Assembly: GCF_014205795.1 (NCBI RefSeq)
Contig: NZ_JACHCN010000003.1
Coordinates: 11,198-35,197 of the forward strand
Length of the DNA: 24,000 nucleotides
Direction: 5' to 3'
Origin: Rhodanobacter sp. MP7CTX1
GTDB lineage: Bacteria; Pseudomonadota; Gammaproteobacteria; Xanthomonadales; Rhodanobacteraceae
The position numbers were made by a program, and so were the translations under genes. Shown one piece after another: positions 7,506 to 24,000 of this stretch; position 1 is the first letter of the stretch; each line of letters starts with the position of its first letter. The notes under the pieces are model-generated. The model saw only the letters and a program-made list of their open reading frames with translations. It did no database searches and had not been told where the DNA came from.

Positions 7506-7790
7506 CCAGGAAACCAAAGCGTACTCGCTTATCTTCCGAAAATATCTCACTGGGCGAAGGCGCCTGTCAGATGGCTGGCTGGATACATCCCCAAACTAAG
7601 AGGATTGGTCGAGCCTCAAGGGGTGCCCAAGGTGAAGAAGAAAGCGGCGGGATCCTTGCGGGCCGTCGGCAAGCGCTTTGTGTTCTTTGTCGACGATATC
7701 GACCGATTGACACCCAATGAAGCCCTGGACTTTTCCGAGAGATCGAGGCTCTCGGTGATTTCCCAGAGGTGGTTTACACCCAACCTCAAA
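7506..7790 (+). pseudogene. KAP P-loop NTPase gene fragment (Walker B region only, frameshifted)
   Basis: GKRFVFFVDDIDRLTPNEALD matches DRRVLIIIDDIDRLAPDEALG of the intact KAP at 14001-16136. After a frame change, LFREIEALGDFPEVVY matches VFRLVKSIGRLPNVMY. No Walker A is present. The fragment ends where the HEPN gene 3' end (7786) abuts. Boundaries are approximate. Confidence 0.55.
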
Positions 7791-8600
7791 ACTGCACTCC
7801 AGTCTCCCATTTCATCCTTAAATCGATGTTGGCGGTGACCGTCGCGAGTTGAGTCGCTGCATGGACTGCTTGCATGCAGTCATGTGCGTGGCAGACGGTT
7901 GATCCAGGTTCATGCACCAATTGGTTACGGAGCTTGCGAAGTGTGTCCACCAGGTCGGCAATCTTGGCAGGAATCAAGCCGGTGTCACGGAGTTCATTGA
8001 CCATTTTGCTGACTGGAATGGGGCGGCCGTTTTTTTGTGACCGAGGGCCAAAGATGGCCTTGACGGAAGACTCGATAACGAACCATAGAAGTGTGAAGGA
8101 GACCTTGTAGTCGTTGTTCTTGTAGGCTGTCTTCGCTTTTGCAATGAACGATAGTCTCTTCACCAAATCGGCGTCTTTCGACACGAAAGTAAAACTATCT
8201 AGGGCGTCTACAATCACCGATCTCTTGACCACGCGCCAAAGCGCCAAGTCATCGAGTGTCTCATTGGTGGTCAAAGGCGTCTTCATTCCGCCGGCTATCC
8301 ATGCAGTCAGATCGCTTCGTGCGCGCAGAGGCGACCAGCGTCGAGGATATCTTCGATTAACCACCGAGCCGTCCAGGAAGCCGACTCTACAGGTATCAGA
8401 GATCGACACTGCATCGGCTAAGGCCTCCTGCGAAATCGTGCATTTGAGTGATTCAGACTCGATAAGAAGTAGCAAAGTGTTCGCGTAGTCCAAGTGCTCA
8501 TCCCACCACTGGACAGACTCGTTGAGCTTGTTGGGGTCGCCCATGTTAGGTATGGATGTCGCTAGATGGTCCATTCTCAGAAGAACTAGGCCATCGATAC

Positions 8601-8604
8601 ACAC
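8601..8604. repeat. target-site duplication ACAC (left copy)
   Basis: ACAC lies immediately outside the IS terminus, and an identical ACAC sits at 9794-9797. Confidence 0.75.
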
Positions 8605-8645
8605 CGACGTCCCCCCGCTTTCAGTAGCGGAGCGAATTAGAGTCC
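8605..8645. repeat. IS terminal inverted repeat (orfB-proximal end)
   Basis: CGACGTCCCCCCGCTTTCAGTAGCGGAGCGAATTAGAGTCC compared with the reverse complement of 9752-9793. The first 13 nt are identical, then the two are similar with one indel. Confidence 0.72.
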
Positions 8646-8649
8646 GGGA

Positions 8650-9474
8650 TTACTGTAACTGTTTTGCATAGGCGGCAGGCGTCAGTCCGCCGAGTGCTTT
8701 CTTGGGTCGTTCCTCGTTGTATTCCCGACGCCAGCTTTCGATCTCGGTGCGTGCGTGTAACAGGCTGGGAAACCAGTGCTCGTTGAGGCATTCATCGCGA
8801 AAGCGGCCATTGAACGATTCGATATAAGCGTTCTGGTTGGGCTTGCCTGGTTCGATCAGGCGAAGCTGCACGCCACGTTCGTGTGCCCAGGTGACCATGG
8901 CCTTGCCGCAGAACTCTTTGCCGTTGTCGCTGCGAATGACTTTGGGCAGGCCGCGACTGAGCGCAAGACGATCCAGCACGCGCGCCAGGCCCATGCCGGA
9001 GATCGCCCGTTCAACCTCGATAACGACTGCCTCGTGGGTGGCATCGTCGACCACGGTTAGGCACTTGATGACACGAGCATCCGCCGTGCGATCAAACACG
9101 AAATCCATCGACCATACCTCGTTGGGTGCCGACGGCCGCAACAGCGGTTGCCGCTCAGCTACTGGCACTTTCTTCCGCTTGCGTCGGCGCACCTGCAGCT
9201 TCGCTTCCTGGTACAGACGCTCCACGCGTTTGTAGTTCACCAGCAGTCCCTCCTGTCGAAGCTTCAGGTAGATCATCCCCACGCCGTAGCGCTTGTGCCG
9301 CTGTGCCAGGGCCACGATCCGTTGTCGAAGATCCTCGTTACCATCCGGGCGCGTCTCGTAGCGATACGCACTGGCACTCATGCCCACGATCGCCAGCGAC
9401 CGGCGTTCGCTCAAGCCCTTGTCCACTATGTGCCGCACCAACTCGCGTCGAGCCGGTGCGCTCACCACTTTTTT
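8650..9474 (-). CDS. IS3-family transposase OrfB (DDE/rve catalytic domain), expressed as an OrfAB fusion by -1 frameshift
   Basis: The -1 frame from the slippery site reads [13 protein letters not shown]... and runs to the stop at 8650. It has an rve-type DDE triad. The upstream part of the 375-aa track ORF is a shadow of orfA. Confidence 0.88.
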
Positions 9475-9725
9475 CGCAACGCTTCCTTGATGACCTCGTT
9501 CTCGAGCACGTGCTCGGCGAGCAACTTCTTCAGCCGCGCGTTCTCCGTCTCCAGCTCCTTCAGGCGCTTGGCATCGGGCACGCTCATCCCGCCAAACTTG
9601 CTGCGCCACAGGTAGTACGAGGCCTCGCTGAAGCCGTGCCGGCGGCACAGCTCCTTCACCGGCATGCCGGCTTCCGCTTCGCGCAGGAAGCCGATGATCT
9701 GTTCTTCGGTAAACCGCTTCTTCAC
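9462..9725 (-). CDS. IS3-family transposase OrfA (HTH)
   Basis: (M)[45 protein letters not shown]... with a leucine-zipper-like tail. GTG start at 9725 is preceded by AAGGAG at 7 nt. The track start (TTG 9731) is 2 codons longer. Confidence 0.88.
9468..9474 (-). promoter_or_regulatory. programmed -1 ribosomal frameshift heptamer A AAA AAG
   Basis: The minus strand reads CGA AAA AAG TGG TGA in the orfA frame. This X XXY YYZ motif sits 2 codons before the orfA stop, the classic IS3-family arrangement. Confidence 0.8.
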
Positions 9726-9751
9726 GTCCAATCTCCTTGGGTTGAGGGATT

Positions 9752-9793
9752 GGACTCCAAATCGCTGTGCTACTCAAAACCGGGGGGACGTCG
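9752..9793. repeat. IS terminal inverted repeat (orfA-proximal end)
   Basis: The reverse complement reads CGACGTCCCCCCGGTTTTGAGTAGCACAGCGATTTGGAGTCC. Confidence 0.72.
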
Positions 9794-9797
9794 ACAC
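9794..9797. repeat. target-site duplication ACAC (right copy)
   Basis: Matches 8601-8604. A 4-bp duplication fits the IS407 subgroup. Confidence 0.75.
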
Positions 9798-10150
9798 AAG
9801 TGCTTTAAACGTGTCGTTTACTGTTTGAACGGCGATTTCGGGAATTATTCCTGCTAGACGGTGTGCGCTTTGAAAGTTGTAGGGGTCAATCGCCTCATCG
9901 ACCCAAAATCCTTCAGATGTATAGAAGCCAACAAACGTTTCCATTTGCTTTAGCTGGGCATCCATTCGCTCTTTGGTCATACTGCCGAGCCCGTTCATGT
10001 CCATTCGGTTTTGATCCGCATGTGTGTTCATTTTCTGGGCGTGTGCCAGGCGACGTCCGTCTGGAATTGAGTAGCACGAAGCATTAGAGGTCCTACCTCA
10101 CACTTGAGGAGATCGGACGTGAAGAAGTATTTTTCGGAAGGACGTAGCAT

Positions 10151-10780
10151 CTAGAACGGAAGCTTTTCGATTCGCGCATACCTCGCAAATTTGATCGCGC
10201 CGTGTGCCCAAGGGTCTCTGCGGGTCATGGCTCGCTGCAACGCTTCTTTTCCGCTGAAAATCCAAGTCGGTAGCGTCGGGCGTATTCCCTGTTCCCACCG
10301 GCTATTGCACTCCTTAAGAAATGCTTGCATGCGGCCAGTGATGGTGTCGTTCGACGCTAGTTGTACGTCGGGCTCATAGCGAAATTTCGGTCGATATCGG
10401 AGGAATAGTGGGCACTGAGCAAGTGGCAGCGCTATCGCTGGTATGGTCGCAGCGGGAAAGCTGGATTTACGAGGCAAATAGTGGGGGCCTAGGTCGAGGA
10501 GTCGCCCCGAGGACTCGACCCAGAAATGCGACGGCAGCGCTAAATCGCTTCCTTGCCCGAAGCCCTGAAAATTTGCTTGCCGGCCGTCCTTCGAGACGAC
10601 GAATGCAAGAAAATCACCTCCAACAATACGGGCGTCGAGGCCCAATTGTCTGAGTAGTGAGGAAAGACCGAAGGCGGCGTACACGCATCGTGCATCGTAG
10701 TCATCTGGGAACAGCTCACGCAGCATGCTATCAATGAGACCCATGCAACTCGCTATCTCGTTCGAAGCTTCCTGGCTCAT
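10151..10780 (-). CDS. hypothetical protein with Cys32/His85/Asp96 pattern, divergent paralog-like of 5263-5859
   Basis: 209 aa from the ATG at 10780, with AAGGA 9 nt upstream. ARCVYAAFGLSSLLRQLG...PSHFWVESSGRLLDLG. The 98-codon N-terminal extension in the track ORF looks non-coding. Confidence 0.55.
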   Translation of the reverse strand: MSQEASNEIASCMGLIDSMLRELFPDDYDARCVYAAFGLSSLLRQLGLDARIVGGDFLAFVVSKDGRQANFQGFGQGSDLALPSHFWVESSGRLLDLGPHYLPRKSSFPAATIPAIALPLAQCPLFLRYRPKFRYEPDVQLASNDTITGRMQAFLKECNSRWEQGIRPTLPTWIFSGKEALQRAMTRRDPWAHGAIKFARYARIEKLPF

Positions 10781-11423
10781 CGTTTCAATTCCTTTAGCGT
10801 GCTGGTGGGGCAAACATGGCGGTTTCGCTTGTGCCACGGCCATACCCCGACGCTGTGGCGAGTTCGGTGCGGCTTGTAATCTTAGGCGAAAACTAGTCGG
10901 GCAAGAGTGGCTTCCCCCCCACGAGTCCCTGTGCTGGCATTGATGCGCGAAGAGTTGAAGTTTCGATTCAACGTCAGTGCATACGAGGCCGCGCAGAAAA
11001 AGACGGCCGACCACGCCAAAAACCAGGTTGGCCCGACGCTCGACGCAATGCGTAAAGGCGCGTCCTCCCAGCAAGGCTGAGCCTTGCTCAAGGCCTCGGA
11101 CGACACAGAAGTTCCCCGTGTGCAGTAGCAGCCGGCTCTAACAATCCTGTTTCGGAAAAATGCCTGGGCATTTGGGCCTCATAGTCGGCGTTCGTGGCTG
11201 ACGGCTTTGCCGGCGCGTAACACTACCGCTGGGCTTGGGCAGCACAAGTAACTAAACTCGTACCTGTCGAAACGCGGAAATTGCGTCTCTCAGAGGTGGC
11301 CTCCTGAGACTGATGATGGCGGGCTGTACACATGCGGTTTTTGGCCCCACGGGTTTCCTGCTGGGGTTTGGGGTTACCGAAGTGATCGCTCTTCTATCTG
11401 AAATCACAAAGGAGGATATGCGC

Positions 11424-11549
11424 ATGGTCCAAAAGGCAGCGGTATCGAGTGGGAGGCGGCTGTGGTCATACGTCAAAAGTTCTACCAGGCGCTTCATCGC
11501 GTTTTGGGAGGCTCACCTTCCTTACAGGCAACACAGACAAACCTGCTGA
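11424..11549 (+). CDS. possible small basic protein (41 aa)
   Basis: A strong AAAGGAGG at 11408-11415 lies 8 nt before ATG 11424. Sequence: MVQKAAVSSGRRLWSYVKSSTRRFIAFWEAHLPYRQHRQTC. It ends ~100 bp upstream of the AbiU2-like gene. Confidence 0.3.
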   Translation: MVQKAAVSSGRRLWSYVKSSTRRFIAFWEAHLPYRQHRQTC

Positions 11550-11652
11550 TGAGCTTGTGCAATTCAAGCGAAAAGGGCCTGAGAGCGGTGCCTAACAATT
11601 CTAGGCGAACGGTCGCGTCGCCGCTCAGTTCCACCACTATGTCCCGCAACCG

Positions 11653-12216
11653 ATGACCGTCGCGTTCAAAATTCTTGGCCACCTTATCGACGAAGCAAAT
11701 GCCGCTCGCGCGCATTTTCAAGTGTGGTGGGCGTTGCGCAACCTGGCGTTGCCAGAGTTTTACGACACAATGAATGATTCCAAGTATGTCCAGTTCTTCC
11801 ATGCTTCGAATTCTGGCCATTACAAGCTGGTGTTCGTTGCTCTAGGTAAGATTTACGACAGTGACACCCGCGCCGCTGGCATAGCTGAGTTGAAGAGCGC
11901 CTTACGAGCCGAGGGGCGAGCTGACGTGGCGGATAAGGTCCAGCGGGACTTGGCCTCAATGAACGCGCATGTGCAACGCATCCTCGGGATTCGCAACCGC
12001 ACCGTGCTGCACAACGAACATGCTCTAGAGCGGGCTATTGTCTATGAGATGCATGGCATTCAGCCAGACGAAATATGGGAGTTGATTGACGCGACGTCAG
12101 AAGCCTTTAACGTAGCAGCTGAGGCTCTTGGGCACTCGTTCCGCGTCTCTGCAAGCAAATCTTACGAGGCGGCTACACTCGCTATGCTCGAACAATTGCA
12201 ACGTGGCGGCGCCTAA
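11653..12216 (+). CDS. HEPN-domain protein, AbiU2-like
   Basis: 187 aa. ILGIRNRTVLHNEH carries an RN...H motif (R114...H120, nt 11992-12012). The size and the helical N-terminal part (HFQVWWALRN, LVFVALGKIYD) resemble abortive-infection AbiU2-type HEPN proteins from memory. Confidence 0.6.
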   Translation: MTVAFKILGHLIDEANAARAHFQVWWALRNLALPEFYDTMNDSKYVQFFHASNSGHYKLVFVALGKIYDSDTRAAGIAELKSALRAEGRADVADKVQRDLASMNAHVQRILGIRNRTVLHNEHALERAIVYEMHGIQPDEIWELIDATSEAFNVAAEALGHSFRVSASKSYEAATLAMLEQLQRGGA

Positions 12217-12423
12217 CTGTGCGCTCAGGACAGGAAACGCCGCTTGGTTAGCGCCCGGAGCGGACATAACGAGAAGCTTTTCGAATCACCATACTCTGGC
12301 TATTGAAATAGAAATTGAAGGGCTCTTTGGCATTGTCGAAAAGCCCCTTGGAGCTCAAGCCAACGGCAAGTTTGCGATTCCTGGAGTGAGCTATCCCGCC
12401 TGACGCTTCTGCGGGCAGCTAGC

Positions 12424-13941
12424 TCAGCGTTGAGGGATTGGTGGCTGCCATCCAGTCACTGGTCCGACGTGAACGCTGATGCCGTATGCAAATTGATGCT
12501 GATGATATGGAGATCCGCGGTAGAGAATTGCGTCGACCTCTTGGGCGAGCTCTCGATAAAGCTCGTTGTCCGTCGCGCAGGAATACAAAAGCGCAATGCG
12601 CAGTTTTTGAGGCCCGCTTGAGGCGGCGACCTTGACATATAGCGAACGATCGTCTGGCTCACCAATCTCGACGCTCCAGCCTGCGTTTCTTAAAGGTCGC
12701 ACCAGATCGTCAATGCATTCCTGCTGAAGCACGGCTTTTCGTAGCAAGACGCCGTCGTCGGTAGGCATTGCAGGTACCAGCCTGCCATGCTGGCGATAAT
12801 TTTGTTGTTCGATTTGCTTTACTGCCATTTGGGCCTGCGCTTGCAACATCGCCTGCTGCCATAGAAGCCTGCCGTCCTCATCCATGCCAGGGAATATAAG
12901 CGGCACCTGATTGGACTCATCGTGCCATGACTCGATCACCCCAAGTGTTGCAATAGCCACCACAAGACGCGAAAAATTTGACGGCTTCTGCCAGTCCATT
13001 GATGCGCCGTGTGCGAACAGGTGTCGGTTTAACCAAGTGAGGCCGTCATACTCGCCGGTACGGCGAAAGAATGAATTCTCGAGCCACCGCCGGAAGGTTT
13101 GAAATACAAAGACTCGTTCGTCCTGCACGTAAAGGTAATCTTTTTCGCGGTACTCGGATGGAACCCACATGTCACCGAAGTGCGATCTGGCTGCCAACAT
13201 GCATGCCCGATCAATAATTTTGTCGACCTGCTCGAGAACAGGTTGCCCTGCGGCTTCGCTCGATATGCGACTGACCGCGCCTTCCATCACCGGAATCAGC
13301 GCCGCAATGCTGGAGGCCCTGTGCCCTGAATAGAACGCGAGATAGGCTTCCCGTGCGATCGGGGCAAATACCGAAAGCGATCGAGACTGAGGCAAGAATT
13401 GCGCGATGCACACTGCCTGAAACGGTAACGTGTAGATCGTTGATGTGTGATATTCAAACAATCGCAGCGCGTCCTCTTTGGAACGGTGCTCAATCGCCTG
13501 AAGTAGCTCATTGACCTTCCCCTGGGGAACCCAGAGAGGTGCAAACCACTCGACTTTTTCCCACAGGCTTGCGATCCGGTCCAAATGGACTTTGTGGGCG
13601 ACCCATTGCGGGTCACCAGTTGCCGCAACTTTCGGAAAGCAGGCTATTCCCTCGTCCGACTGCAGAACAACTGCGGGAGTGGGCCGGAAGATGCCAACAC
13701 TACGCTCCGAAACATCGAGCACTTTGATTTCCATCTGGTGGGCCCAGCCAGAGACCAGGTCCGCCTGAAGATCATTCAAGCTCGGCAGCGCCATAGCACG
13801 CCGCCAGAGTCCGGGAAATTTCGATCGACTCTCTTCGCCAGTCATTTCCGTCCAAATGCCGAGTTCGTCTTTCATGATCATTTGGACAGATTTGTCACTA
13901 TCAGCCCACCGTTCGCAGTGATCGACCAACCGGCCGCTCAC
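12424..13941 (-). CDS. large hypothetical protein with central HEPN-like region (Rx4H)
   Basis: 505 aa, 60 bp downstream of the KAP NTPase on the same strand. FAPIAREAYLAFYSGHRASSIAALIPVMEGAVSRI ... TWLNRHLFAHGAS (R306...H311, nt 13009-13026) ... NFSRLVVAIATLG. The GTG start at 13941 is uncertain. Confidence 0.7.
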   Translation of the reverse strand: MSGRLVDHCERWADSDKSVQMIMKDELGIWTEMTGEESRSKFPGLWRRAMALPSLNDLQADLVSGWAHQMEIKVLDVSERSVGIFRPTPAVVLQSDEGIACFPKVAATGDPQWVAHKVHLDRIASLWEKVEWFAPLWVPQGKVNELLQAIEHRSKEDALRLFEYHTSTIYTLPFQAVCIAQFLPQSRSLSVFAPIAREAYLAFYSGHRASSIAALIPVMEGAVSRISSEAAGQPVLEQVDKIIDRACMLAARSHFGDMWVPSEYREKDYLYVQDERVFVFQTFRRWLENSFFRRTGEYDGLTWLNRHLFAHGASMDWQKPSNFSRLVVAIATLGVIESWHDESNQVPLIFPGMDEDGRLLWQQAMLQAQAQMAVKQIEQQNYRQHGRLVPAMPTDDGVLLRKAVLQQECIDDLVRPLRNAGWSVEIGEPDDRSLYVKVAASSGPQKLRIALLYSCATDNELYRELAQEVDAILYRGSPYHQHQFAYGISVHVGPVTGWQPPIPQR

Positions 13942-14000
13942 TGACCAGCCGATCGCGTCCTGAAGCGAATTTTACATACCGTTAGCATGGACTCTATCGG

Positions 14001-16136
14001 TCAAAATCTCTCCGACCCCTTTCTCGCCCACGCCTCCAGGAATACCCGCACGGCCTCGAGGTCTTCTGCGGGCCGCCGCTGCTCGCGAGCGATACGCTCC
14101 AGTGCAGTTCGAAACTGGTCTGGATCAAACAAGTCAAAGTCGCTGCGAATATCGACACGCATCTCTCGGCGTGACACGCGATCACCGAGGCTGCCAAACC
14201 CACCCAGCCCTGTCGTCCTTGACTCACTAGTCAACGCGCGCGCCAGCCGCACCAGGACATCGTCGCGGCGCATTCTGTCGGTGAGCCAAGCCTTCATTTC
14301 GGCACCGTCGTCGCCGGCAAACTCCCTCCAGCGGTACAGGCAATACATGATGTCTCGCTGGAGTAGCAGCGAATCATCCTGGGCTGCCTGGCGTAGCGCG
14401 TTTAACGCGCGCTCTATCAGGGCGGGCAAAGCTTCCTTCGTCGTTAGTGCCGTCGCTAAATCTAACTCTCGTCCCTGCCGGGGATAGTGATCAGCGTAGG
14501 CCGAAGAAACAAAATCAACCAGCCAGCCCAATGTGGCGCGCTCGGTAGCGGCCAAGTAGAGCGCGGACTTTTCCTCGAGCGTGAAGCGATCTTCTGTCAC
14601 GCGGCGAATGAGCCAATGTATACGCAGCGACGTCGTAGCCATCGCGAAACCACGCTCTCCGTCTTGCTCGCGATCAATCGCGTCGGCGATCTCGAAGATG
14701 GCCGAGAAGAACGCGGGCACCTTGTCTTTGGCGATTTGTCGCCCATGACTGGTCAGCTCGTCCAGCACCACCGGGACCATCGATTTAGCTTTGCTCCGAA
14801 GCTGTGTCGCTGCACGCAACAACCTCTCTTGAATGAACTCTTTGTCACCCGATCGATCCAGAAGCTCCCGGATCTCCTTACTGGGCAATGTGTCGTCGCT
14901 CAAGGACATCTTGAAATAGGTATCGAAATGCTTGGCCACGCACACGCGGCGTTCCAATTCCCAGCTTTCGCGAAACCCCGAGTATGTGACTTCCTCGAAC
15001 GCCGGGAACAGACGCTGCAGAGCAATTTGCAGCCCTTCAAGGCGCTCTTTCGGCATGCCGGCCAAGAACGGATCGAAGCGCGCCTTGTCCCTCGACCCAC
15101 CCCGACTGGCGCTGGTCACAATATCCCGGTGCTGCCGGATCGACGTGTAGAGCGAGGGCTCGTACAGGCGCAAGGTTTCTAAGGCGAGGTAGTCGGCGTG
15201 GCTGACGTTGTTGGCCACTGGCGGCCAGGTAACAGTGATCGCGTTGATCAAGCGAGTAACGTGCCGCGGCGTGGTGAGGTAGGGAACCACCACGTCATAG
15301 AACAAATTCATGAAACGCACCTGATGCTCTTCCTTAGGCGTACCGCACCGTTCCTGGAAGGCCGTCAGTAGCGCGTTGTGCAAATCGCTGGGCGTTGGCG
15401 AAGGAAGTTCGAAGCTGGCTTGGATGATCTTCTCGAGAAAGTGAGGGCCTTCAGAAGGAAAGCGCTCCTTGACCGCAGCATCGGCCAGCGCACGATCGAA
15501 CACCATCAGATACATAACGTTGGGCAAGCGACCGATGGACTTGACCAGCCGAAACACCCCCAACGCCTCGTCCGGGGCCAACCGGTCGATGTCATCGATG
15601 ATGATTAACACACGCCGGTCCTGCGCCTCGAGCGTCTTGGAGAGCTTGCGAAAGGTCTTTTCCAACGAGGGTTTGTCGGGGAAAAAGCGCTTGGCGAAGG
15701 CTGCCGAGCCCGCGGCCAAGGCACCCCAACCGCTGGTCGTAGCCAAGGCGATCGCACTGCCGAGTACCGGCCCGGCTTGAAGCACGTGGCGACCCATTTC
15801 CGGCACTAGGTCTTTGACCTTGTCACCCAAGGAGCTCTTCAGTGCGGAGTTCAGTTCTTGCAAAAACGCCAGGGCGATTGCTTCCTCGCCTCGGTACCAC
15901 CAACACTTAAAATCAAAGACCGACAAGGTGTCGTCCTTTCGCTCGAGCAGTTCTGCCCGAATCAAGTTGACGGCACTGCTCTTGCCCGAGCCCCACGGGC
16001 CGGTCACCGCAATGGTGCTCCCGACAGGTTTGGCAATGCCAAGCAAACTCGTCGCCAGAGCCTCGGCAAAGGCGTGGACTCCATAACAATCGTCTTCCCG
16101 ACGTTCAATTGGACTGTCGTTAAAGTACTGGGACAT
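14001..16136 (-). CDS. KAP-family P-loop NTPase
   Basis: 711 aa. Walker A is GPWGSGKS (nt 15978-16001). A Gly/Ala-rich hydrophobic insert (AGPVLGSAIALATTSGWGALAAGSAAF) separates the Walker motifs. Walker B is RVLIIIDDIDRLAPDEAL, followed by LMVFDR. RBS GGAGAAAGGG precedes the ATG at 16136. Confidence 0.92.
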   Translation of the reverse strand: MSQYFNDSPIERREDDCYGVHAFAEALATSLLGIAKPVGSTIAVTGPWGSGKSSAVNLIRAELLERKDDTLSVFDFKCWWYRGEEAIALAFLQELNSALKSSLGDKVKDLVPEMGRHVLQAGPVLGSAIALATTSGWGALAAGSAAFAKRFFPDKPSLEKTFRKLSKTLEAQDRRVLIIIDDIDRLAPDEALGVFRLVKSIGRLPNVMYLMVFDRALADAAVKERFPSEGPHFLEKIIQASFELPSPTPSDLHNALLTAFQERCGTPKEEHQVRFMNLFYDVVVPYLTTPRHVTRLINAITVTWPPVANNVSHADYLALETLRLYEPSLYTSIRQHRDIVTSASRGGSRDKARFDPFLAGMPKERLEGLQIALQRLFPAFEEVTYSGFRESWELERRVCVAKHFDTYFKMSLSDDTLPSKEIRELLDRSGDKEFIQERLLRAATQLRSKAKSMVPVVLDELTSHGRQIAKDKVPAFFSAIFEIADAIDREQDGERGFAMATTSLRIHWLIRRVTEDRFTLEEKSALYLAATERATLGWLVDFVSSAYADHYPRQGRELDLATALTTKEALPALIERALNALRQAAQDDSLLLQRDIMYCLYRWREFAGDDGAEMKAWLTDRMRRDDVLVRLARALTSESRTTGLGGFGSLGDRVSRREMRVDIRSDFDLFDPDQFRTALERIAREQRRPAEDLEAVRVFLEAWARKGSERF

Positions 16137-16149
16137 CCCTTTCTCCGTA

Positions 16150-16190
16150 GGCTTTGTAACCTACTATATATATTGCACTGGGCGTTTCTT
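16150..16190 (-). promoter_or_regulatory. possible promoter of the KAP operon (AT-rich TATATATA/TATAGT tract)
   Basis: The only strongly AT-rich stretch in the 280-bp gap upstream of the KAP start. A minus-strand TATAGT-like -10 is present, but no convincing -35. Confidence 0.25.
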
Positions 16191-16416
16191 GGCGTGAGAA
16201 TCGGCCTGGCCGTTCTCTCTTCGCCGACGCCGATCCTGCCGCTTCGAAGAATAGCCGATGCTTTTCTCCGCGGCGGTCCTAGTCTGCGACCGCGAAATCG
16301 GCTCTCCAGTCACCAGTCCCTTGTAGATATGCCGAGGAGATCGGTAACCGACATGCCGGAAGGGAAGTGATGCTTAAACTGTCGATGGTCGGGTCTATTC
16401 ACCTTCTATCAGAGCA

Positions 16417-17181
16417 TCATCGAGATGAGTTCGTCGGGGTTGAGGTGGCTCCATCACTGTGCTGCACTCTGGACGTTGCCCACACTACCGATCCTATCGG
16501 TACGGTTACTACTTCCTCATGGGAGAAAAGGGCACAGAAGCGATCGGAGCATTGCATGATCCGATATGAGTGAAGCACTCCGTCAGGAGACGTGACCACG
16601 ATCGCCGGCGCATTGGGAAACCCTCGCGCGAAGTCTTCCGCAGCCGTTGCAGCTCCTACGTGCAGGAAAGGTGCCACAAGGAGTAGGAGCGTGGCGCCAA
16701 TTACAAGGCACAGGGTGTAGAGCATATAGGCGCCGAAGAAGGCGCTGAAGACCCAAAGGGCTGCCAGCTTTACCGCAGGGTGCAGCGAAAGCGACCGAGT
16801 ACCTTGATGCGATCGTGAGCTACGCCAGCGCTCGGCAAGCTGGCGAAGGTAATAAGCGCCGACAGCCAATACCACGATTGAAATAGCGGGCACCAGAGTG
16901 GTGGCCGCCCAGTGCATTTTGAAGGTGTCACTGATGGCCGTAAAGACCCTGGTTGCCCCTCCCATCCAGGCGAGCGCTGCAAAGGTCAATGTATCGGGGA
17001 CATCGGATGGGAACATGGAAGAGGATAGGTGAAAGTAGCCAAGATAGCCTTCGTGAAAGGCTACCCCGTTCAAATAGAACACGGGTGTAAGGATTGCGAT
17101 TGCGGTAACTAGCCATTTGGCGATGGCATACCAAGCCATCTTTTCTTTCCCACCATCCGTGGCTGCAGATTCAGCGTCCAT
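16417..17181 (-). CDS. multi-pass membrane protein (4-5 TM) with a ~70-aa soluble C-terminal domain
   Basis: 254 aa. Hydrophobic segments: WLVTAIAILTPVFYL, LTFAALAWMGGA, LVPAISIVVLAVGAYYL, LAALWVFSAFFGAYMLYTLCLVIGATLLLLVAPFL. GAGGA RBS upstream of the ATG at 17181. Confidence 0.75.
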   Translation of the reverse strand: MDAESAATDGGKEKMAWYAIAKWLVTAIAILTPVFYLNGVAFHEGYLGYFHLSSSMFPSDVPDTLTFAALAWMGGATRVFTAISDTFKMHWAATTLVPAISIVVLAVGAYYLRQLAERWRSSRSHQGTRSLSLHPAVKLAALWVFSAFFGAYMLYTLCLVIGATLLLLVAPFLHVGAATAAEDFARGFPNAPAIVVTSPDGVLHSYRIMQCSDRFCALFSHEEVVTVPIGSVVWATSRVQHSDGATSTPTNSSR

Positions 17182-17230
17182 GTTGCATATCCTCTAAATT
17201 TTGACGAAGTTGCCATTAGGCTTTGGGTTG

Positions 17231-17264
17231 GTCTCGCGGAGCGAGACTGGGCGGTGGCCCGCCC
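17231..17264 (-). promoter_or_regulatory. two adjacent perfect GC-rich hairpins in an intergenic region
   Basis: GTCTCGC-GGA-GCGAGAC (17231-17247) and GGGCGG-TGGC-CCGCCC (17249-17264). No U-tract follows on either strand. Confidence 0.35.
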
Positions 17265-17322
17265 CCTGAATCATAAGCAGTTCCAGCCTACTTCGTCCGC
17301 GGGCCCCGATGAACGCCACGCC

Positions 17323-17766
17323 CTAGTAAATCCCATGTGCTGTTCGGTACAACAGGGACTCTACTAGACGGGCACCGCTATCGCTTACAGCTAAGGCCAT
17401 CGGAGTGATGGGAATTTGCTTGGGAATGTAGTTTGCGGGAGTGCGGAGCCACTTCAATGCGGCTTCCTCATTGCAAAACAGTTGCACAGCCTCGGCAAAG
17501 ACACGGGCCAGGCGCACGACACGATCGGATTCGTGTACGGCGAATCGGCTGTTAGAAGCGAGTCGGCGCCGCACTGTACTTTCAGGGACGAGAAGGCCGG
17601 GTGGCAACCTGAGCTTTGCCGTCACGCGCATGTATGTTCGGGCGCTGATACCACTGGAAACCGCACGGACGACATCGGCTTCAGAGTCAAGTTTCAGGTT
17701 AAGCAGCTCGCTCATCCGAGTGAAAATTGGCACCGTTTGGACTGACGGATTGGGAAGATCTCGCAT
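17323..17766 (-). CDS. Xre/MbcA/ParS-type antitoxin-like protein (DUF2384 toxin-binding domain)
   Basis: 147 aa. ESDRVVRLARVFAEAVQLFCNEEAALKWLRTPANYIPKQIPITPMALAVSDSGARLVESLLYRTAHGIY matches the conserved C-terminal domain of RES-associated antitoxins. GAGGAGG lies 7 nt upstream of the ATG. Confidence 0.82.
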   Translation of the reverse strand: MRDLPNPSVQTVPIFTRMSELLNLKLDSEADVVRAVSSGISARTYMRVTAKLRLPPGLLVPESTVRRRLASNSRFAVHESDRVVRLARVFAEAVQLFCNEEAALKWLRTPANYIPKQIPITPMALAVSDSGARLVESLLYRTAHGIY

Positions 17767-17853
17767 GACGTGTCCTCCTCATTGTTCGGTCATCGGTCTT
17801 CTTGAAGGTATCTGCGTTGACGGGGTTGACCCCATTAGGGCGGCTGAATTCGG

Positions 17854-18597
17854 TCACGTCGAAGCGGGACGTCTGTAAAACGGTTCGAGTTGCAGGCCGG
17901 ATATTCCCGCACGATGGGACGGCTCTTGGGGAAGGAAGCAAACTTGAAACATGTTCGAGGTAAGGCCTGCGTCACATGCGATTCGAATGAGTGCGTCCTC
18001 TAGTACAGCCTCGTGCGCCGCATTTACTGCGAGAACAATCTGCGGCGGCACGTCACGATTGGGGTGATGCAATTCGTACATGTAGGCCTCATCAATGTAA
18101 CCGGTGGACACAAACCAGGACGCCAAGGCGTAGGCAACTGGGTAGAGGCTATCGTCAGGCAATCGGAACACCCACGGACTGTCATGCGACGGAAGGCTCC
18201 CGAATTCCGGGTCGGCTGCAGCAAGAGCCTGCAATCGTTTGTACGCGAAATCGCTTATCTCATATTTGACGGGCGAGAGCGGATTGATCACAAAGCGCCG
18301 CTTGTTTGTGCTCAATAACAAACGAAGCATGTGCACCCGGACATAGGTCGCTGGGGAAGGTAAGGCTGGCGGTCCACGAGATGTCGAAGTGAAGAGGGGA
18401 ACAACATGCCGACCATCGGTATACCCCCACTCGACCAGATTGTGTCTGGGGTCTGCCTCGCCTGGACCGGGTGGGCATCTGAGTATGGCAACGATGGTGC
18501 TCGTCGACAGCTGGTCGAGGAAATCCAACTCACCATTCTCACTTAAAAATCCAGCATCTATCTGTTCGCCCAATGGGTCATGGTGCTCATCTGACAT
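17854..18597 (-). CDS. SseB-family protein
   Basis: 247 aa. WGYTDGRHVVPLFTS...FVINPLSP...E parallels E. coli SseB (W..DG..VIPFFTS...). The C-terminal ISGLQLEPFYRRP parallels HIAPFYERR. AGGAG RBS lies 6 nt upstream of the ATG at 18597. Confidence 0.68.
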   Translation of the reverse strand: MSDEHHDPLGEQIDAGFLSENGELDFLDQLSTSTIVAILRCPPGPGEADPRHNLVEWGYTDGRHVVPLFTSTSRGPPALPSPATYVRVHMLRLLLSTNKRRFVINPLSPVKYEISDFAYKRLQALAAADPEFGSLPSHDSPWVFRLPDDSLYPVAYALASWFVSTGYIDEAYMYELHHPNRDVPPQIVLAVNAAHEAVLEDALIRIACDAGLTSNMFQVCFLPQEPSHRAGISGLQLEPFYRRPAST

Positions 18598-18896
18598 CGT
18601 CTTCTCCTTTTCTAGTCCGCACGCCGCGAGAATTTCTGCTTCTTAGCCACTACGCGAACCAAAACCGTTCAAGGGTGATTTCTCCACTCTGCTGTCACCG
18701 CGGATCGGCCGGCTAAAGCCCGTTCTGAAGCCGTTTCGGACTTGTCTTTCGTATCGTGTATATCACACGGAAAAACAATGACTTACGCTTGACTTGGCAG
18801 TGCGAATATGCCAGTTTTTGCCCGTGAGTACACCCCGGATCGCCGTCAGAGGGATGGGCTCCCGCGTCGTCTGCCCGTACCCCGGCGAGTGGGCTT

Positions 18897-18916
18897 AATC
18901 CGGACCAATCCGGACT
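18897..18916. repeat. tandem 10-bp direct repeat AATCCGGAC(C/T) x2
   Basis: AATCCGGACC AATCCGGACT lies immediately upstream of the RBS/start of the AlpA-like gene. Confidence 0.3.
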
Positions 18917-18930
18917 GAGAGGCGTTGGTC

Positions 18931-19197
18931 ATGGGCGATAACCCCCAATCCCGAGTGGACCTTGAGCTGTACCTGCCCAGGACACCGGTTATAAGCGGCG
19001 CAGAGACTGCCCGCATCATGGGGTTTTCCACTACCGAAGCCCTTTACAAGGCACGGCAAGCCGGACGGCTGCCGATCGACCTGTTTCGCTTACCTGGACG
19101 ACGAGGCTGGTTTGCGGCTACTCCCGCTGTGAGAGAGTGGTTGCACGGAGTCATGTCCGAAGGGGGCGTCGGTACCAACCCAGGAGACAGGAGATGA
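18931..19197 (+). CDS. AlpA/excisionase-type helix-turn-helix DNA-binding protein
   Basis: 88 aa. VISGAETARIMGFSTTEALYKARQAGRLPIDLFRLPGRRGWFATPAVREWL fits the HTH_17/excisionase pattern. ATG 18931 preferred over the track TTG at 18925. Confidence 0.68.
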   Translation: MGDNPQSRVDLELYLPRTPVISGAETARIMGFSTTEALYKARQAGRLPIDLFRLPGRRGWFAATPAVREWLHGVMSEGGVGTNPGDRR

Positions 19198-19340
19198 CTA
19201 TGAGCGAATAGCCCACTTGGCGGGCTATAAAAGTTCGAGCCCCGCGTGGCAAGACGCAGGGCTCGGATACGAAGGCGAAGCTTTTGAGAATCGCGCTTCT
19301 CCTTCCTTATAGTGCCGCCCCCAGAGCACGTCAAGCGATT

Positions 19341-19357
19341 TCACCGCATAGCGGTGA
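19341..19357. promoter_or_regulatory. perfect inverted repeat TCACCGC-ATA-GCGGTGA upstream of the transposase gene
   Basis: 7-bp arms and a 3-nt spacer, 83 bp upstream of the ATG at 19440. Possible operator. Confidence 0.35.
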
Positions 19358-19439
19358 TGAGTTGATCCCGCGTGTTCGGATTTCCGGCGACCCTGCCAGG
19401 CCGTCTAGGTCCTTGCGCGCCCAGCGAGGAGGCACACCC

Positions 19440-21842
19440 ATGTTTAGTGATGCTCAGCGAAGCCTTTACTACCAAGCACGAGGTCTACATTCCACCGCCC
19501 TGCGCGAAGTCGAGGAGATGAGGGTGAACAGCCCGGCGCGAGAACCCAGTCAACGTGGCCTCACGAACACCATTGTCGACTTCCACTCAACGATGAGCGA
19601 CCGGCGGTGGTTGTTGGAGAGCTATACCGGCGAATTTCTCTTCGCGCTCTATCTAGAGGTGTTCAGTGGCTGCGACGAGTACTACGCTCAGGTGCGGCCG
19701 AAGAACGTGGTTCGCAATAGGCGGACGAGCTCGCTCACCGTCGACTTCATGGTGTTTGATCGGGCGGGAATCCGGCTCGTTGAAGTAAAGCCGCAAAGCC
19801 GACTGGAAGCGCTGGGTACTTCGAACCCCGAAGAGTGGGTATGCCACGCGGGGCGCTGGACGAGGCCGCCGGTGGAAGCGTGGGCAAGCGATCGAGGTCT
19901 GACCTACACCATCTGGTCCCCACCGGAACCTCACGGCATTTGTCAGGTAAACCTACTGTCTCTTTACGGAGTGGTGGCCGATACAGCGGCTCGAGAAGCC
20001 GAAATGAAGTGCGTTCGGCGCTTACGCAGGTTATTGCAGAAAGGCCCCCTAACCATATGCGACGCACTCGATAGGGTCTCTGGCCTCTCTGGAGTGCACG
20101 TACTCGCTGCGCTGGCAAAGGGATACATCTTCGGTCCTTTGCAGTCGGTTCCTCTCGACGAGGCTGGCCGCTTCACGCTTTTCGGCGTCAAAGCGCAGGC
20201 GGTCGAGTGCGATGAGCGACTGCTGAGTCAGCTGAAGGCGCATGTCAGCCAGCCCAACGTCGGCTCGAAGCTTATGCTGGCGAGCCCCAAGGACTACGCC
20301 AGCGCCCAACTTCGCCTAGCAAAGGTGAATCGAATCTTGGCGGGTGAGGTGCCCGCGACTCGACGATATGCTCCTTTGGTCCGCATCGTGTGCCAAGCGC
20401 GATCAGACGGACAGAGCGAGCTCGAAGTCTGCCTGACGCGCTACGCGAACTCGGGTCGACGCATAGGTCAGTTGACGGGCGATCAAGAGCGCGAAATGGC
20501 CGCGGCAATTGACGCGTATCGGAAGAATCCTGATATTCGCAACAAGCTCCAAGCCCATGACTATTTGGTAAAAGCCTGCGATCTTAAGGGCATTCGTCCT
20601 CCGGGCCGTGCGACTTTCAACGCTCGCCTTCGTCAGTCGAGCGACTTGGTGCGCGCTTATACCGAAGGAGGCTACAGGGGCTACCACGCCGCGGAGTGTG
20701 TATCAGACCCTGGTAATAGAACACTGCGTTGCAACGTGCCGGGCCTGATGGTGCACATCGACTCCACGAAGTTCGATTTGCGCTGTACTCCCGATTTCCT
20801 GGGTGCCTTGGAGTTCGACTGTCCGACACTCTACGTGGCCATGGATTCGGCTGCAGCTAAGCCGTTGGGCTACGCCGTATTGTTTGGTCCGGCGTGCCGC
20901 AACGCGTTAGCTGTGCTCATTCGCGACATCTTTCACAGGCAAGGTTTTTTGCCTCGTTACTGGATCGCTGATGGTGGCGCGGAATATGTCGGCCCCTGGT
21001 TTGCAGAAGCGTGTTCGTTTTTTGGCGCTACCCGCATACAGCCACCTCCGGGTACTCCCCGCAGGAACTCGCTTGCAGAAAACGCCCTAGGTCGAATCAA
21101 CGCCGAACTCGCGCATCGCTTCTTGGGTAGCACCGCGCCGGATCAAAAGGGACGCTCGGTCACTTCACGCCAAAAGAGCTACGCCACAGCCTGCCATCGT
21201 TACTCGACGATCGCAGAACACCTTGAGAAATATCTCTTCGAAGATGTCCCCGAGACACCACTGTTGTCTACGCGGTTCAGCCCTCAGGAAAGGAACGATG
21301 AGCTTACCGCCCTCTATGGCAATGCTGGTGCAGTAAGGATTCGGAATCTGGATGAGTTCCTGATCGTAACCTCGGTTCCTCTCGGTCGAGGAGTCACCGC
21401 CGATCCTCGTCGTGGGATCCGTTATCTCCAACGAACCTACGCCAGCGCTGACCTCATGCAACTCCTTCGCTTTCATAAGCCGATCGACATACGGTTGGAT
21501 TGTGTGGATCCGCACCGAATGTACGTGCGATTTCCATCGAAGTGGGTGCTCGCAATGACCAGCCAAAGCTTGCAAACCGGTGGTAGGGATACCGCGACCA
21601 AACTTTTCGAATCCATCATGGATAGCAAGCTGAGAAGCGAAGGGGCGCAGAAACGCGACGAACTTCGGAGAAAACGCGCAGAGCGCATTGCCGAAGCAAA
21701 CCTAGCAGCCAAGACGGCGGACCACCTCACATACATGCTTAAGCCTGCGAAAGATGCGCCACCGAAGACTAAGAAAACACGCATCTGGAGTGATCTCAAA
21801 AGCCCAATTGCCCCCTTCACCACCGGACAGGGTGACCTATGA
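19440..21842 (+). CDS. fused TnsA-like endonuclease / TnsB(TniA)-like DDE transposase
   Basis: 800 aa from ATG 19440, with GAGGAGG 7 nt upstream. The N-terminal part, LESYTGEF...LTVDFMVFDRAGIRLVEVKPQ, has the E/D/K pattern of the TnsA restriction-endonuclease-like fold. The C-terminal part has an rve-type triad: HIDSTKFD (D, nt 20760-20762), WIADGGAEYVG and NSLAENALGR. It also has the Mu/TnsB-type motif RRGIRYLQRTYAS. Confidence 0.82.
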   Translation: MFSDAQRSLYYQARGLHSTALREVEEMRVNSPAREPSQRGLTNTIVDFHSTMSDRRWLLESYTGEFLFALYLEVFSGCDEYYAQVRPKNVVRNRRTSSLTVDFMVFDRAGIRLVEVKPQSRLEALGTSNPEEWVCHAGRWTRPPVEAWASDRGLTYTIWSPPEPHGICQVNLLSLYGVVADTAAREAEMKCVRRLRRLLQKGPLTICDALDRVSGLSGVHVLAALAKGYIFGPLQSVPLDEAGRFTLFGVKAQAVECDERLLSQLKAHVSQPNVGSKLMLASPKDYASAQLRLAKVNRILAGEVPATRRYAPLVRIVCQARSDGQSELEVCLTRYANSGRRIGQLTGDQEREMAAAIDAYRKNPDIRNKLQAHDYLVKACDLKGIRPPGRATFNARLRQSSDLVRAYTEGGYRGYHAAECVSDPGNRTLRCNVPGLMVHIDSTKFDLRCTPDFLGALEFDCPTLYVAMDSAAAKPLGYAVLFGPACRNALAVLIRDIFHRQGFLPRYWIADGGAEYVGPWFAEACSFFGATRIQPPPGTPRRNSLAENALGRINAELAHRFLGSTAPDQKGRSVTSRQKSYATACHRYSTIAEHLEKYLFEDVPETPLLSTRFSPQERNDELTALYGNAGAVRIRNLDEFLIVTSVPLGRGVTADPRRGIRYLQRTYASADLMQLLRFHKPIDIRLDCVDPHRMYVRFPSKWVLAMTSQSLQTGGRDTATKLFESIMDSKLRSEGAQKRDELRRKRAERIAEANLAAKTADHLTYMLKPAKDAPPKTKKTRIWSDLKSPIAPFTTGQGDL

Positions 21843-22825
21843 ACCGCCAGCCTATTATTCCCCATCCTGCCTTTGTCCGAGCGCGGGACGCCTTAGTGCG
21901 GGCCCTGGACACGGACCAGCGCGGGCAAATTATCTTTGTCATCGGTCTGTCGGGATCGGGCAAGTCTGAAATTCGCTATGAGGCGATGCAGGCGTTTGCC
22001 GGAGCGCTGGATCAGTGGCCAGACGGTCAGATGCCCGCGATTGCGCTGCGAGCAGCGCCGACTGATCGATCCCGCTTTAGTCCGAAGGAGTTTATGACTC
22101 GCTTTTACCTTGAACTGCATGAACCCGATCTTCGCTGGCTCACTGGACGAAATGTGATCAACGATCCGGATTTGGTGCATCGCAGGGCGGACGCTCGCCT
22201 GTCAGATGCATTTTGGATCGATATGCGGCGTCGCACGACCGAGCACCAGCTGCGTACTTATGTGGAGCGCATGATTCCTGCCCGAGGTGTACGAGGCGTC
22301 TTTGTTGAGGAGGCCGCCTCGCTTACCTACACGCATACGTCAAAGGATCCTGAAAATCACATGGTGAACTACATGTGTCTAGCCGAAGAGATTGGCATCA
22401 CTTTGGTGCTGTTCGGCGTTCCTCGTGCAGCGAAACTCTGGGAGGGAAACGCGGAGATCCTTCGGCGCTCAAGATTTGTTTATGTTGAGCGCTATCGCTT
22501 GAAAAATGCGGAAGATTGCGTGAATTTTGAACGATTGGCTGTGAGCCTCGCTCAGCGCTTTACCTTCTCTCGTCGGAACCTTCTACGTCGAAACTTCGAC
22601 CTTGCCTACGTGTCGAGCGCTGGAGTTTGCGGCGAGCTGAAGAGCTACCTGTTGCGCGCCGACGACTTGCGCGCGAGCGATGGCGCGGAATCCATCACTC
22701 TGGTCCATCTTGAAGGGGCCGTCCAGCCAGAGGCCGTGCTGAAGACGCTTCACGCGGACGCGGTAGAGTTTGATGTTCTCCGAACGCCGGCGAATTCGAG
22801 CACCATAAAGAGGATTCTCAAATGA
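21839..22825 (+). CDS. TniB/TnsC-like AAA+ ATPase
   Basis: 328 aa. Walker A GLSGSGKS (nt 21944-21967) and a Walker B-like GVFVEEA. ATGA overlap with the upstream transposase stop. Confidence 0.78.
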   Translation: MNRQPIIPHPAFVRARDALVRALDTDQRGQIIFVIGLSGSGKSEIRYEAMQAFAGALDQWPDGQMPAIALRAAPTDRSRFSPKEFMTRFYLELHEPDLRWLTGRNVINDPDLVHRRADARLSDAFWIDMRRRTTEHQLRTYVERMIPARGVRGVFVEEAASLTYTHTSKDPENHMVNYMCLAEEIGITLVLFGVPRAAKLWEGNAEILRRSRFVYVERYRLKNAEDCVNFERLAVSLAQRFTFSRRNLLRRNFDLAYVSSAGVCGELKSYLLRADDLRASDGAESITLVHLEGAVQPEAVLKTLHADAVEFDVLRTPANSSTIKRILK

Positions 22826-24000
22826 ATTCTCAGCGCTCCATCGCTAAGAGTGATCTGAAAGCTCGATGGACCGTTCTCCCTCCCCTGAAGTTAAAAGGCG
22901 TGGGTACTTCGCTCGTGGAATCGGTGCCTAGCTACGTGGCTCGCATGCTCTGGACGACGGGCGTTCCTTTGAACCACCTCGTAAGATGCGTGGCTCGTCG
23001 TGCTATTCCTGGCTCAGGAAGTTCAACCACGTTTATGGTCTCGGAGGCACTCAACACGATTGCGATATCTCGTGTCGAGGAGCTCGAATCCCTCAGTGGG
23101 GAAAAGGATCTGCGTTGCGGCTCTCTTTGGGCGCTATCAGAGATCATGTCCTATAAAACCAATGTCTATGGCGAGTACAAGCGACGATGGTGTCCTCAAT
23201 GCTACGAGGACTGGGACAGCAATTCCTATGAGCCTCTCGTTTGGCGAGTCGACCTCTTAGGCGTCTGTCCACGGCACCAATGTCGCATGGAATGCACCTG
23301 TCCGAAGTGTGGAAAATTTCAGCGCGATACCTACCAACTCGACCTTCGTCGGACTTGTTGGGCATGTGGCACCTCTCTCTCTACAGGCGCGATATGGCCG
23401 AAACGTCCGGACTTCGCCCATTGGGTCGATGAGCAGATCATGCAGCTGATCGAGTTTTGCGCGACGCCTCGTGCCGTGCCAGCGCCATTGTCGATCTATA
23501 CCGATTTCGCGATGGGCCTGTGCATCAACGCCAAAAGGAGCGGCCGGAGGGACACAGTGATGCGGCTCATACTCAAGGACATCGAGCGGCACGCACGGCG
23601 AAACTCGCGGCGACCAACCTTACGTTCATTGCTCAACGTTTGCGCATTACAGGGTATATCTGTGCAGGAGCTTTTATGCGCTCCGAGGCAGGTGTCTGGG
23701 CCGCTGCTCTTTGATCAGTGGCCCGGTATGAGCTACTTGCCCCTGCCTTCTGCTGTTCACGCGCAAAGAATTCATGCTGCGTCTCGGTATCTAGAGGACT
23801 TTCTCGCGCTAGATCCTCCCTTTCTTCCTCCCATGAACATCCTGCTTCTTTGTTTTCACATCCAGCTTCTCGCACTAAAAGATGTCGCAGCCGATATCTT
23901 TCATGCTTATGAAGAACGCTACCTCAGCCAAGGTTCTCGCTCACGGCTGGCGTGTTTGCGAAGTTCGTTCCTATGCGCGCGGAGGGTGCTTATTCATCCC
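22822..24000 (+). CDS. TniQ/TnsD-family target-selection protein (3' end outside window)
   Basis: The frame is open from ATG 22822 to the window end (393 codons, translated by hand, absent from the ORF track). N-terminal LVESVPSYVARMLWTTGVPLNHL is TniQ-like. A Cys/His zinc-finger cluster reads WCPQCYEDW...GVCPRHQC...CPKCGKF...CWACG. ATGA overlap with the tniB stop. Confidence 0.78.
   Translation, partial: MNSQRSIAKSDLKARWTVLPPLKLKGVGTSLVESVPSYVARMLWTTGVPLNHLVRCVARRAIPGSGSSTTFMVSEALNTIAISRVEELESLSGEKDLRCGSLWALSEIMSYKTNVYGEYKRRWCPQCYEDWDSNSYEPLVWRVDLLGVCPRHQCRMECTCPKCGKFQRDTYQLDLRRTCWACGTSLSTGAIWPKRPDFAHWVDEQIMQLIEFCATPRAVPAPLSIYTDFAMGLCINAKRSGRRDTVMRLILKDIERHARRNSRRPTLRSLLNVCALQGISVQELLCAPRQVSGPLLFDQWPGMSYLPLPSAVHAQRIHAASRYLEDFLALDPPFLPPMNILLLCFHIQLLALKDVAADIFHAYEERYLSQGSRSRLACLRSSFLCARRVLIHP

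Follow-up and report, generated by a model that had tools for sequence, protein, structure and literature searches.

The 24,000-nt stretch of Rhodanobacter sp. MP7CTX1 DNA analysed here (the window; C3:11198-35197, where C3 is contig NZ_JACHCN010000003.1 of a 44-contig genome) probably covers part of a Tn7-like transposon of the TnsAB clade, namely its transposition module and one of its cargo arms. This element would measure about 23.5 kb, extend from approximately 5005 to 28559, carry cargo on two arms and have lost its far end. Positions are given as window coordinates (C3 coordinate minus 11197), and those above 24000 are window-equivalents beyond the window on the same contig. The guanine-cytosine (GC) content was 50-57% over 5005-28559 versus 59-63% outside. 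On the evidence of homologous sequences and a predicted structure, the 800-aa protein at the centre of the module is a true, naturally occurring fusion of TnsA and TnsB from a Tn7-like clade that was known before. A first-pass annotation of the window had proposed a Tn7-like element with such a fusion, and this proposal held. TnsAB, TnsC and TnsD all found their best matches among the chains of one solved structure, 9bw1.

The TnsAB fusion and the four-gene core

The frame of the fusion gene is open from 19284 to 21842. The ATG at 19440, with a GGAGG 7-11 nt upstream, is the start of an 800-aa protein; an 852-aa version with a TTG start describes the open frame only and is not the real start. 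The residue numbers of the first-pass annotation refer to the longer version, and 52 has to be subtracted for the 800-aa protein. After this correction all six residues it had named were retained (E112 = E60, D154 = D102, K169 = K117, D493 = D441, D563 = D511 and E599 = E547). The TnsA-type PD-(D/E)xK nuclease occupies approximately residues 40-160 (E60/E65, D102, E115, K117) and the DDE core approximately residues 437-550 (D441, D511, E547, with spacings of 70 and 36). Conservation of the catalytic residues was scored on an alignment of 56 full-length homologues, in which E65, D441, D511 and E547 were invariant and E60, D102, E115 and K117 were conserved to at least 90%. A small beta domain at residues 659-706 was taken as the Mu/TnsB-type C-terminal domain, and disorder was predicted for the tail (771-800).

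An exhaustive search for TnsAB relatives yielded 1144 cluster representatives, 107 of them below 1e-30, and most of these strongest representatives are about 800 aa long and align end to end. The family profile matched the 898-aa chain 9bw1_M at 2e-163, the match being split into two stretches (5-266 and 277-763); the first, over the nuclease, covers residues 3-266 of that chain at 211 bits. Matches to the TnsB proteins of Tn6677, ShCAST and Tn7 ranged from 6e-29 to 3e-12, and the match to Escherichia coli TnsA (1f1z) was weak (E = 0.03). An AlphaFold model of the protein (predicted local distance difference test score, pLDDT, 90.2) matched 9bw1_M over 731 columns with E = 2.6e-41 and 1f1z with E = 2.5e-4; TnsB and MuA cores were also matched by Foldseek. 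Pfam gave weak matches with the single sequence (rve, E = 0.16; NERD, E = 0.29). Matches to the models TnsA_N (PF08722), rve and Mu-transposase_C otherwise came from other members of the family only (15, 36 and nine of 56, respectively). A single polypeptide thus matches over both halves, with an N-terminal region that matches TnsA. Because the relatives of about 800 aa align end to end and both profile and model match 9bw1_M, the fusion is not a sequencing artefact.

The structure 9bw1 is reportedly that of Wang et al., Cell 2024. It represents the TnsABCD transpososome of the type I-B2 CRISPR-associated transposon (CAST) of a Peltigera cyanobiont (PMC12585508), whose TnsAB has been described as a natural fusion (PMC11915506). 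Hsieh and Peters (PMC9881144) described the clade of fused TnsAB proteins, which includes McCAST, Tn5469 and Tn5541, and the TnsC tree of Faure et al. (PMC10293859) shows it as well. The fusion as such is therefore not new but belongs to an established clade with a solved structure, in line with the earlier remark that fusions had been noted.

As first annotated, tnsAB is followed by tniB (tnsC) and tniQ, and the start codons of both (21839 and 22822) overlap the preceding stop as ATGA, giving three co-oriented open reading frames (ORFs) from 19440 onwards. TnsC matched the Pfam families AAA_22 (7e-7) and TniB (1e-3), and its best PDB match was PmcCAST TnsC (8fcu/9bw1; 2.8e-9 over residues 7-292). 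TniQ matched PF06527 (5e-10) and, best among PDB chains, the 462-aa TnsD of 9bw1/8v32 (1.5e-11). Pfam revealed no Cas domain in any large ORF, searches for tandem arrays found none, and a second TniQ was absent, the one described being the only TniQ on the contig. With neither Cas genes nor an array and with one TniQ, the element is a plain TnsAB-TnsC-TnsD transposon. It is not a CAST of type I-B2 or I-D, which would contain Cascade genes, a CRISPR array and a further, short TniQ.

A small gene for a helix-turn-helix (HTH) protein precedes tnsAB. Judged from its recurrence, it is the first gene of a conserved four-gene core: the only genes common to the related elements are an HTH gene of 88-112 aa, tnsAB, tnsC and tnsD. 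The HTH protein shared 49-53% identity in alignments (57-62% over the BLAST-aligned region) with the ORF at the same position in genome G064 and in Dyella subtropica. ORFs of 89-90 aa stand at this position in two metagenomic relatives (L025 and L028), and a 90-aa ORF likewise stands before a tnsAB of 42% identity that occupies another site. The protein had no Pfam match even at E = 10; the atlas clusters nearest to it include the PrtN family and HTH_17.

Just upstream of the HTH gene, GCCCGT(N0-6)ACCCCGG occurs twice (18820-18885) and AATCCGGAC twice (18897-18916). In the relatives, different short repeats stand upstream of this gene, for example of a GCGAC type in D. subtropica. Such repeats may be operators or other regulatory sites of the HTH gene or its protein.

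The padR attachment site, the probable loss of the far end and the cargo

The left, target-proximal end lies beyond gajA. A 73-bp block (28487-28559) with the terminus ...GGTGTCATGCCCA contains a 19-bp site (TGACACCAATGT(T/A)TGTAC) three times at 28487-28553, twice in direct and once in inverted orientation; no further copy of these sites with two or fewer mismatches was found elsewhere in the genome. Past gajA the GC content climbs from about 50% to about 62%, and the block stands just before this climb. The same three-site block occurs at the same place in G064, in D. subtropica (L011), the only relative that came from the related-locus search of public genome contigs, and in the metagenomic contig L025. 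The elements of these three share 54-57% TnsAB identity with the present one and carry unrelated cargo. In seven genomes or contigs the left terminus is 19-21 nt (20 nt in this genome) away from CATGACTTCAGGCCCATG, always in the same orientation. Three genomes (G003, G007 and G008) have kept the block and contain no TnsAB gene; their blocks are read as remnants. In four congeners with an empty site (G001, G004, G013 and G016) the block is absent, the gene next to padR and facing it is of the cyclophilin type, and the flank of this genome is homologous from the motif CATGACTTCAGG onwards. Two unpublished genomes (G014 and G032) entered tallies only, and no claim is based on them.

By these comparisons the elements insert at one site and in one orientation, with a set spacing from the sequence that is recognised. 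The attachment site is apparently an undescribed one, a conserved motif in the divergent promoter region between padR and the cyclophilin gene; a search that paired Tn7-like elements with PadR found no paper in the collection covered. A left end on the padR side fits what has been published on the TnsAB clade, in which the left end faces the target (PMC9881144).

The opposite end could be located in two relatives. In G064 a cluster of five sites, about 190 bp long, lies 12.5 kb upstream of tnsAB, with TGGGCA at its terminus. Five base pairs (CTGGT) separate it from the left end of an older remnant, and a 5-bp duplication (ACCAG) is present on both sides of the element, with an ambiguity of 1 nt in an A run. 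Such an arrangement is expected where a Tn7-type site that was occupied before has received another element. The far end of D. subtropica is the same cluster (spacing 0, +24, +154) and lies 10.5 kb upstream of tnsAB, where it abuts a complete older left end. The far-end cluster is built from the same 19-bp site type as the left end. Between far end and core the relatives carry element-specific genes, mostly defence-like: three of them have about 10 kb or more of unrelated defence-type cargo in the position of the island described below, and on L025 the tnsAB side of the core holds at least 9.5 kb of cargo.

Between the start of the contig and tnsAB no end site was detected, either as a 19-mer with up to six mismatches or with a weight matrix built from 28 sites at a cut-off of at least 9 bits; over C3:1-39680 the sole matrix match was an isolated 12-bit site inside tniQ. 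Homology to the three relatives starts within the small HTH gene, at 18970; further upstream the sequences are unrelated. The region from 5.0 to 18.6 kb is most likely a cargo arm on the tnsAB side, because end sites are lacking upstream, inter-element homology starts at 18970 and the far ends of the relatives are 10.5-12.5 kb away. According to Pfam and PADLOC this island encodes a PifA-type KAP NTPase, DUF4145/HEPN-like genes, an Xre-type antitoxin-like gene and an SseB-like gene. Its GC content was 55.5% versus 59-63% in the flanks, and it is interrupted by an insertion sequence (IS) of the IS3 family with a transposase ORF at 8650-9777. The first-pass annotation had placed all cargo outside the window. 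This was correct for the genes beyond tniQ, where a Gabija system follows: GajA (ATPase and TOPRIM, OLD class 2; PADLOC E = 0) is encoded next to GajB (UvrD-like helicase; 9.4e-254), the adjacency that characterises Gabija. It did not hold for the island, which lies in the window and is most likely cargo as well.

The left edge of the island offered no substitute for the missing end. The segment that ends at about 5004 is 88% identical over 1123 nt to C16:84546-85649 of the same genome, and the window copy contains frame-breaking indels. In the C16 copy the gene continues past the breakpoint, and a cluster of far-end (R-end)-type sites follows 440 bp later. The edge at approximately 5005 is a rearrangement breakpoint in a decayed duplicated gene, not a transposon end. 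The left flank (2300-4700), tried as an anchor, is not conserved in the genus. With the far end absent and this breakpoint in its place, the copy is probably stranded and immobile, though its four core genes are intact. The features are compiled in Table 1.

Table 1 Features of the transposon locus in window coordinates
Feature	Position	Strand	Basis
Duplicated host-like segment, glyoxalase gene and decayed AhpD-like pseudogene	3894..5004		88% identity to own C16
Probable tnsAB-side cargo, defence island	5005..18930		GC, layout of relatives, no end sites inside
Small HTH gene (88 aa, PrtN/AlpA/excisionase-like)	18931..19197	+	Same-position ORFs in relatives
tnsAB fusion transposase (800 aa)	19440..21842	+	Profile, alignment, AlphaFold model
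tnsC/tniB AAA+ regulator (328 aa)	21839..22825	+	AAA_22, TniB, PDB match
tniQ/tnsD-like target selector (461 aa)	22822..24207 (leaves window at 24000)	+	PF06527, PDB match
gajB	24281-26083	-	PADLOC, Pfam
gajA	26086-28221	-	PADLOC, Pfam
Left (target-proximal) end, three 19-bp sites	28487-28559		Block common to relatives
Candidate 5-bp target duplication AGTCA	28560-28564		
Conserved attachment motif CATGACTTCAGGCCCATGTACTAGT	from 28580		
padR	28658-29020	+	Pfam 5e-21

Alternative extents and the surrounding locus

The locus is spread over several contigs. Of the neighbours of the empty site, the left one, which is conserved, is found on contig C16 (to about 56000), the right one on C3 (from 39776). 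A 1.2-kb contig with an IS3-family repeat (C40) overlaps the end of C16 and the start of C3 by 95 nt. The C16-C3 interval contains two far-end clusters (C16:86089-86260 and C16:93753-93930), an IS-cut fragment of a left end (C16:103347-103378) and the present element. As candidates for the far end of this copy, clusters on C16 are without the terminal bases. The cluster C16:93753-93930 is about 80% identical to the far end of D. subtropica, and the interval is read as a stack of successive insertions, since eroded by deletions and IS activity.

Several points weigh against a 23.5-kb element without a far end. No far end is joined to it, and on that side its extent follows from composition and from the relatives. 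In D. subtropica the gap between the far end and the older left end is 1 nt instead of the expected 5 nt. The role of the small HTH gene, the binding of TnsD to the padR motif and the activity of the proteins are matters that we infer. Lastly, a good far-end cluster, C16:93753-93930, is present on another contig and an IS bridges the contigs, so that a much larger element is possible.

Such an element, intact and about 50 kb long, would start at that cluster, run through the end of C16 and the IS3-family copy into C3 from its first nucleotide, and make the entire window cargo, including the metabolic genes at 1-5 kb. The two neighbours of the empty site on C16 and C3 are in compatible orientation, the overlaps with C40 would join the contigs, and for about 190 nt the cluster can be aligned, at identical site spacing (0, +24, +53, +79, +154), with both mapped far ends, those of D. 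subtropica and G064. It lacks, however, the terminal TGGGCAT of both relatives, and a left-end fragment lies between the cluster and the IS, which makes it more likely that the cluster belongs to an older, IS-cut element of 9.6 kb. None of the three IS exits (C3, C4 and C12) continues the cut left end, C40 also joins C4 and in part matches the end of C12, and C3:96-16200 has a host-like GC content of 59%. We therefore consider the 50-kb element unlikely.

Still less probable is that the three-site block is a chromosomal operator or palindrome of the padR promoter, which the elements merely target, rather than a transposon end. Its sites, with 0-3 mismatches each, are indeed more strongly conserved than the transposases (54-57%), and it is present in the three genomes without a TnsAB gene. 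Yet four congeners with an intact padR promoter motif lack the block, the far ends of G064 and D. subtropica adjoin another copy of it, full or partial, as tandem insertions beside an older element would lead one to expect, and the far-end cluster is made of the same 19-bp site type. Sites in both orientations are, moreover, a property of published left ends of the TnsAB clade.

In canonical Tn7 elements tnsA lies next to the right end and the cargo beyond tniQ. The first-pass annotation had applied this layout, with a tnsAB-proximal end in 18600-19440, the island outside on the attachment-site side and cargo only beyond tniQ, and pointed to short repeats as possible TnsB sites; some 330 bp of intergenic space would also be in its favour. 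This model is highly improbable, since no family end site matches in 18600-19440, homology to the relatives starts at 18970, their far ends lie 10-12.5 kb off, the GC content is continuous across 18600, and the attachment site was found opposite, by padR, 4.6 kb past the end of the window. Among the repeats GCCCGT..ACCCCGG is real (18820 and 18873; none expected by chance) and AAGCC(C)GTT occurs no more often than chance would have it; neither is similar to the end sites of the family or conserved upstream of the small ORF in four relatives. The suggested inverted copy of the end region was not recovered downstream either: exact inverted 10-mer seeds from 18500-19500 or 4000-5600 against the sequence past gajA were found at chance level only.

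Further observations concern the locus and related sequences. In G064 tnsAB (G064:C12:79038-81421; L012 13027-15506) consists of overlapping ORFs of 580 and 274 aa, split near residue 540, which could reflect a frameshift, a pseudogene or a sequencing error. Distant TnsAB elements (29-32% identity) in G033 and G061 occupy other sites. The 406 bp of C16:85986-86391, with one far-end-type cluster, are absent from an otherwise 89-92% identical contig of G003 (C493), so this cluster is an indel between close relatives. Between far-end cluster and IS-cut left-end fragment, C16:93930-103378 contains no tns genes. A 1130-aa pro-kumamolisin/S8 protease with FG-GAP repeats is encoded there, as are SDR proteins, an MFS transporter and LysR regulators, and the interval may represent a sister element, either decayed or non-autonomous, whose cargo is metabolic. 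On contig C6, which has no tns gene, a related site (CAGAACTCCAAAGTTTGTA) is paired at 17182-17218, 43891-43927 and 59636-59678 with left-end spacing (18 nt, inverted) or far-end spacing (24 nt, direct), and these pairs may be fossil ends of a sister element family. Two Tn7/Tn5053-like modules were seen elsewhere in the genome, one with a 627-aa TnsB-like ORF and TniQ (C8:22098-24880) and one with two adjacent TniQ genes (C5:260933-262899). Downstream of a HAAS/sensor gene, L001:8130-8350 (C3:41130-41350) contains palindromic repeat units of about 100 and 80 nt; they belong to a family resembling repetitive extragenic palindromes or miniature inverted-repeat transposable elements (REP/MITE), with many copies over this genome and the whole genus.

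Relation to known systems and implications

For the preferred reading, a two-armed TnsAB element without its far end, a route of insertion can be proposed by analogy to the solved PmcCAST TnsABCD complex. TnsD would bind the conserved motif in the divergent promoter region upstream of the padR-type gene and recruit TnsC. TnsAB, bound to the 19-bp sites at both ends, would cut both strands with its nuclease and DDE activities. The element would then have been inserted 20 nt from the motif with a 5-bp duplication and with its compact three-site end toward the target. Gabija would form the arm between tniQ and the padR-side end, and the defence island at 5.0-18.6 kb the arm between the core and the former far end.

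The closest characterised systems are those of the TnsAB-fusion clade, i.e. PmcCAST (type I-B2), McCAST/CyCAST (type I-D) and Tn5469, with the TnsABCD structure 9bw1. As in PmcCAST, the TnsA nuclease and TnsB DDE domains are joined in a single polypeptide, and TnsC and the TnsD of about 460 aa are best matched in the same structure. End sites in both orientations, a left end that faces the target and homing at a fixed distance from a recognised sequence are further traits shared with the clade. Identity to PmcTnsAB is, however, only about 20%, and the host is a proteobacterium, with a relative in Dyella, and not a cyanobacterium. Unlike the CASTs, the element has no Cas genes, CRISPR array or second TniQ; its target is the padR promoter region and not a tRNA gene. 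The conserved small HTH gene before tnsAB and the cargo of at least 10 kb between far end and tnsAB also set it apart from the PmcCAST clade.

With Tn7 of E. coli, which inserts at attTn7 at glmS, the element shares the components of a heteromeric cut-and-paste chemistry (nuclease plus DDE), an AAA+ adaptor, a TniQ-domain DNA-binding selector, a probable 5-bp duplication (seen in G064), asymmetric multi-site ends (both present in G064 and D. subtropica) and tandem accretion at one attachment site. In contrast to Tn7, TnsA and TnsB are fused, and the ends begin with TGGGCA and not with the TGT that had been anticipated. The tns operon is not adjacent to an end and points toward the target, TnsE is absent, and matches to 1f1z and 7pik are distant. 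The cargo, dominated by defence genes (Gabija, PifA and HEPN-type genes), resembles that of the Tn7-like elements surveyed by Benler et al. 2021 (PMC8649781), about 30% of which contain an IS3-family IS, as does the present one. Unlike in those elements, cargo is located on both sides of the transposition module.

We cautiously lean towards an undescribed proteobacterial TnsAB subfamily. It would be distinguished by the padR/cyclophilin site, a fourth core gene of the HTH type that may regulate or assist transposition, and two-armed cargo with at least 10 kb between far end and tnsAB; in this genome it would have left a tandem, decaying defence hotspot of about 88 kb.

New are the attachment site in the padR promoter, the cargo on two arms, the small HTH gene as a conserved part of the core and the probable stranding of this copy. 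The textbook rule that tnsA lies by the right end and cargo only beyond tniQ fails for this subfamily, and boundary-prediction pipelines or readers who apply it would miscall ends and cargo. A CRISPR-free proteobacterial TnsAB-TnsC-TnsD system whose attachment motif is short and well defined, and whose ends have been mapped, could be useful beside PmcCAST as a compact model or tool. The padR site is a recurrent defence-island hotspot at which successive elements stack and decay, which explains the mixed content of the surrounding 88 kb or so.

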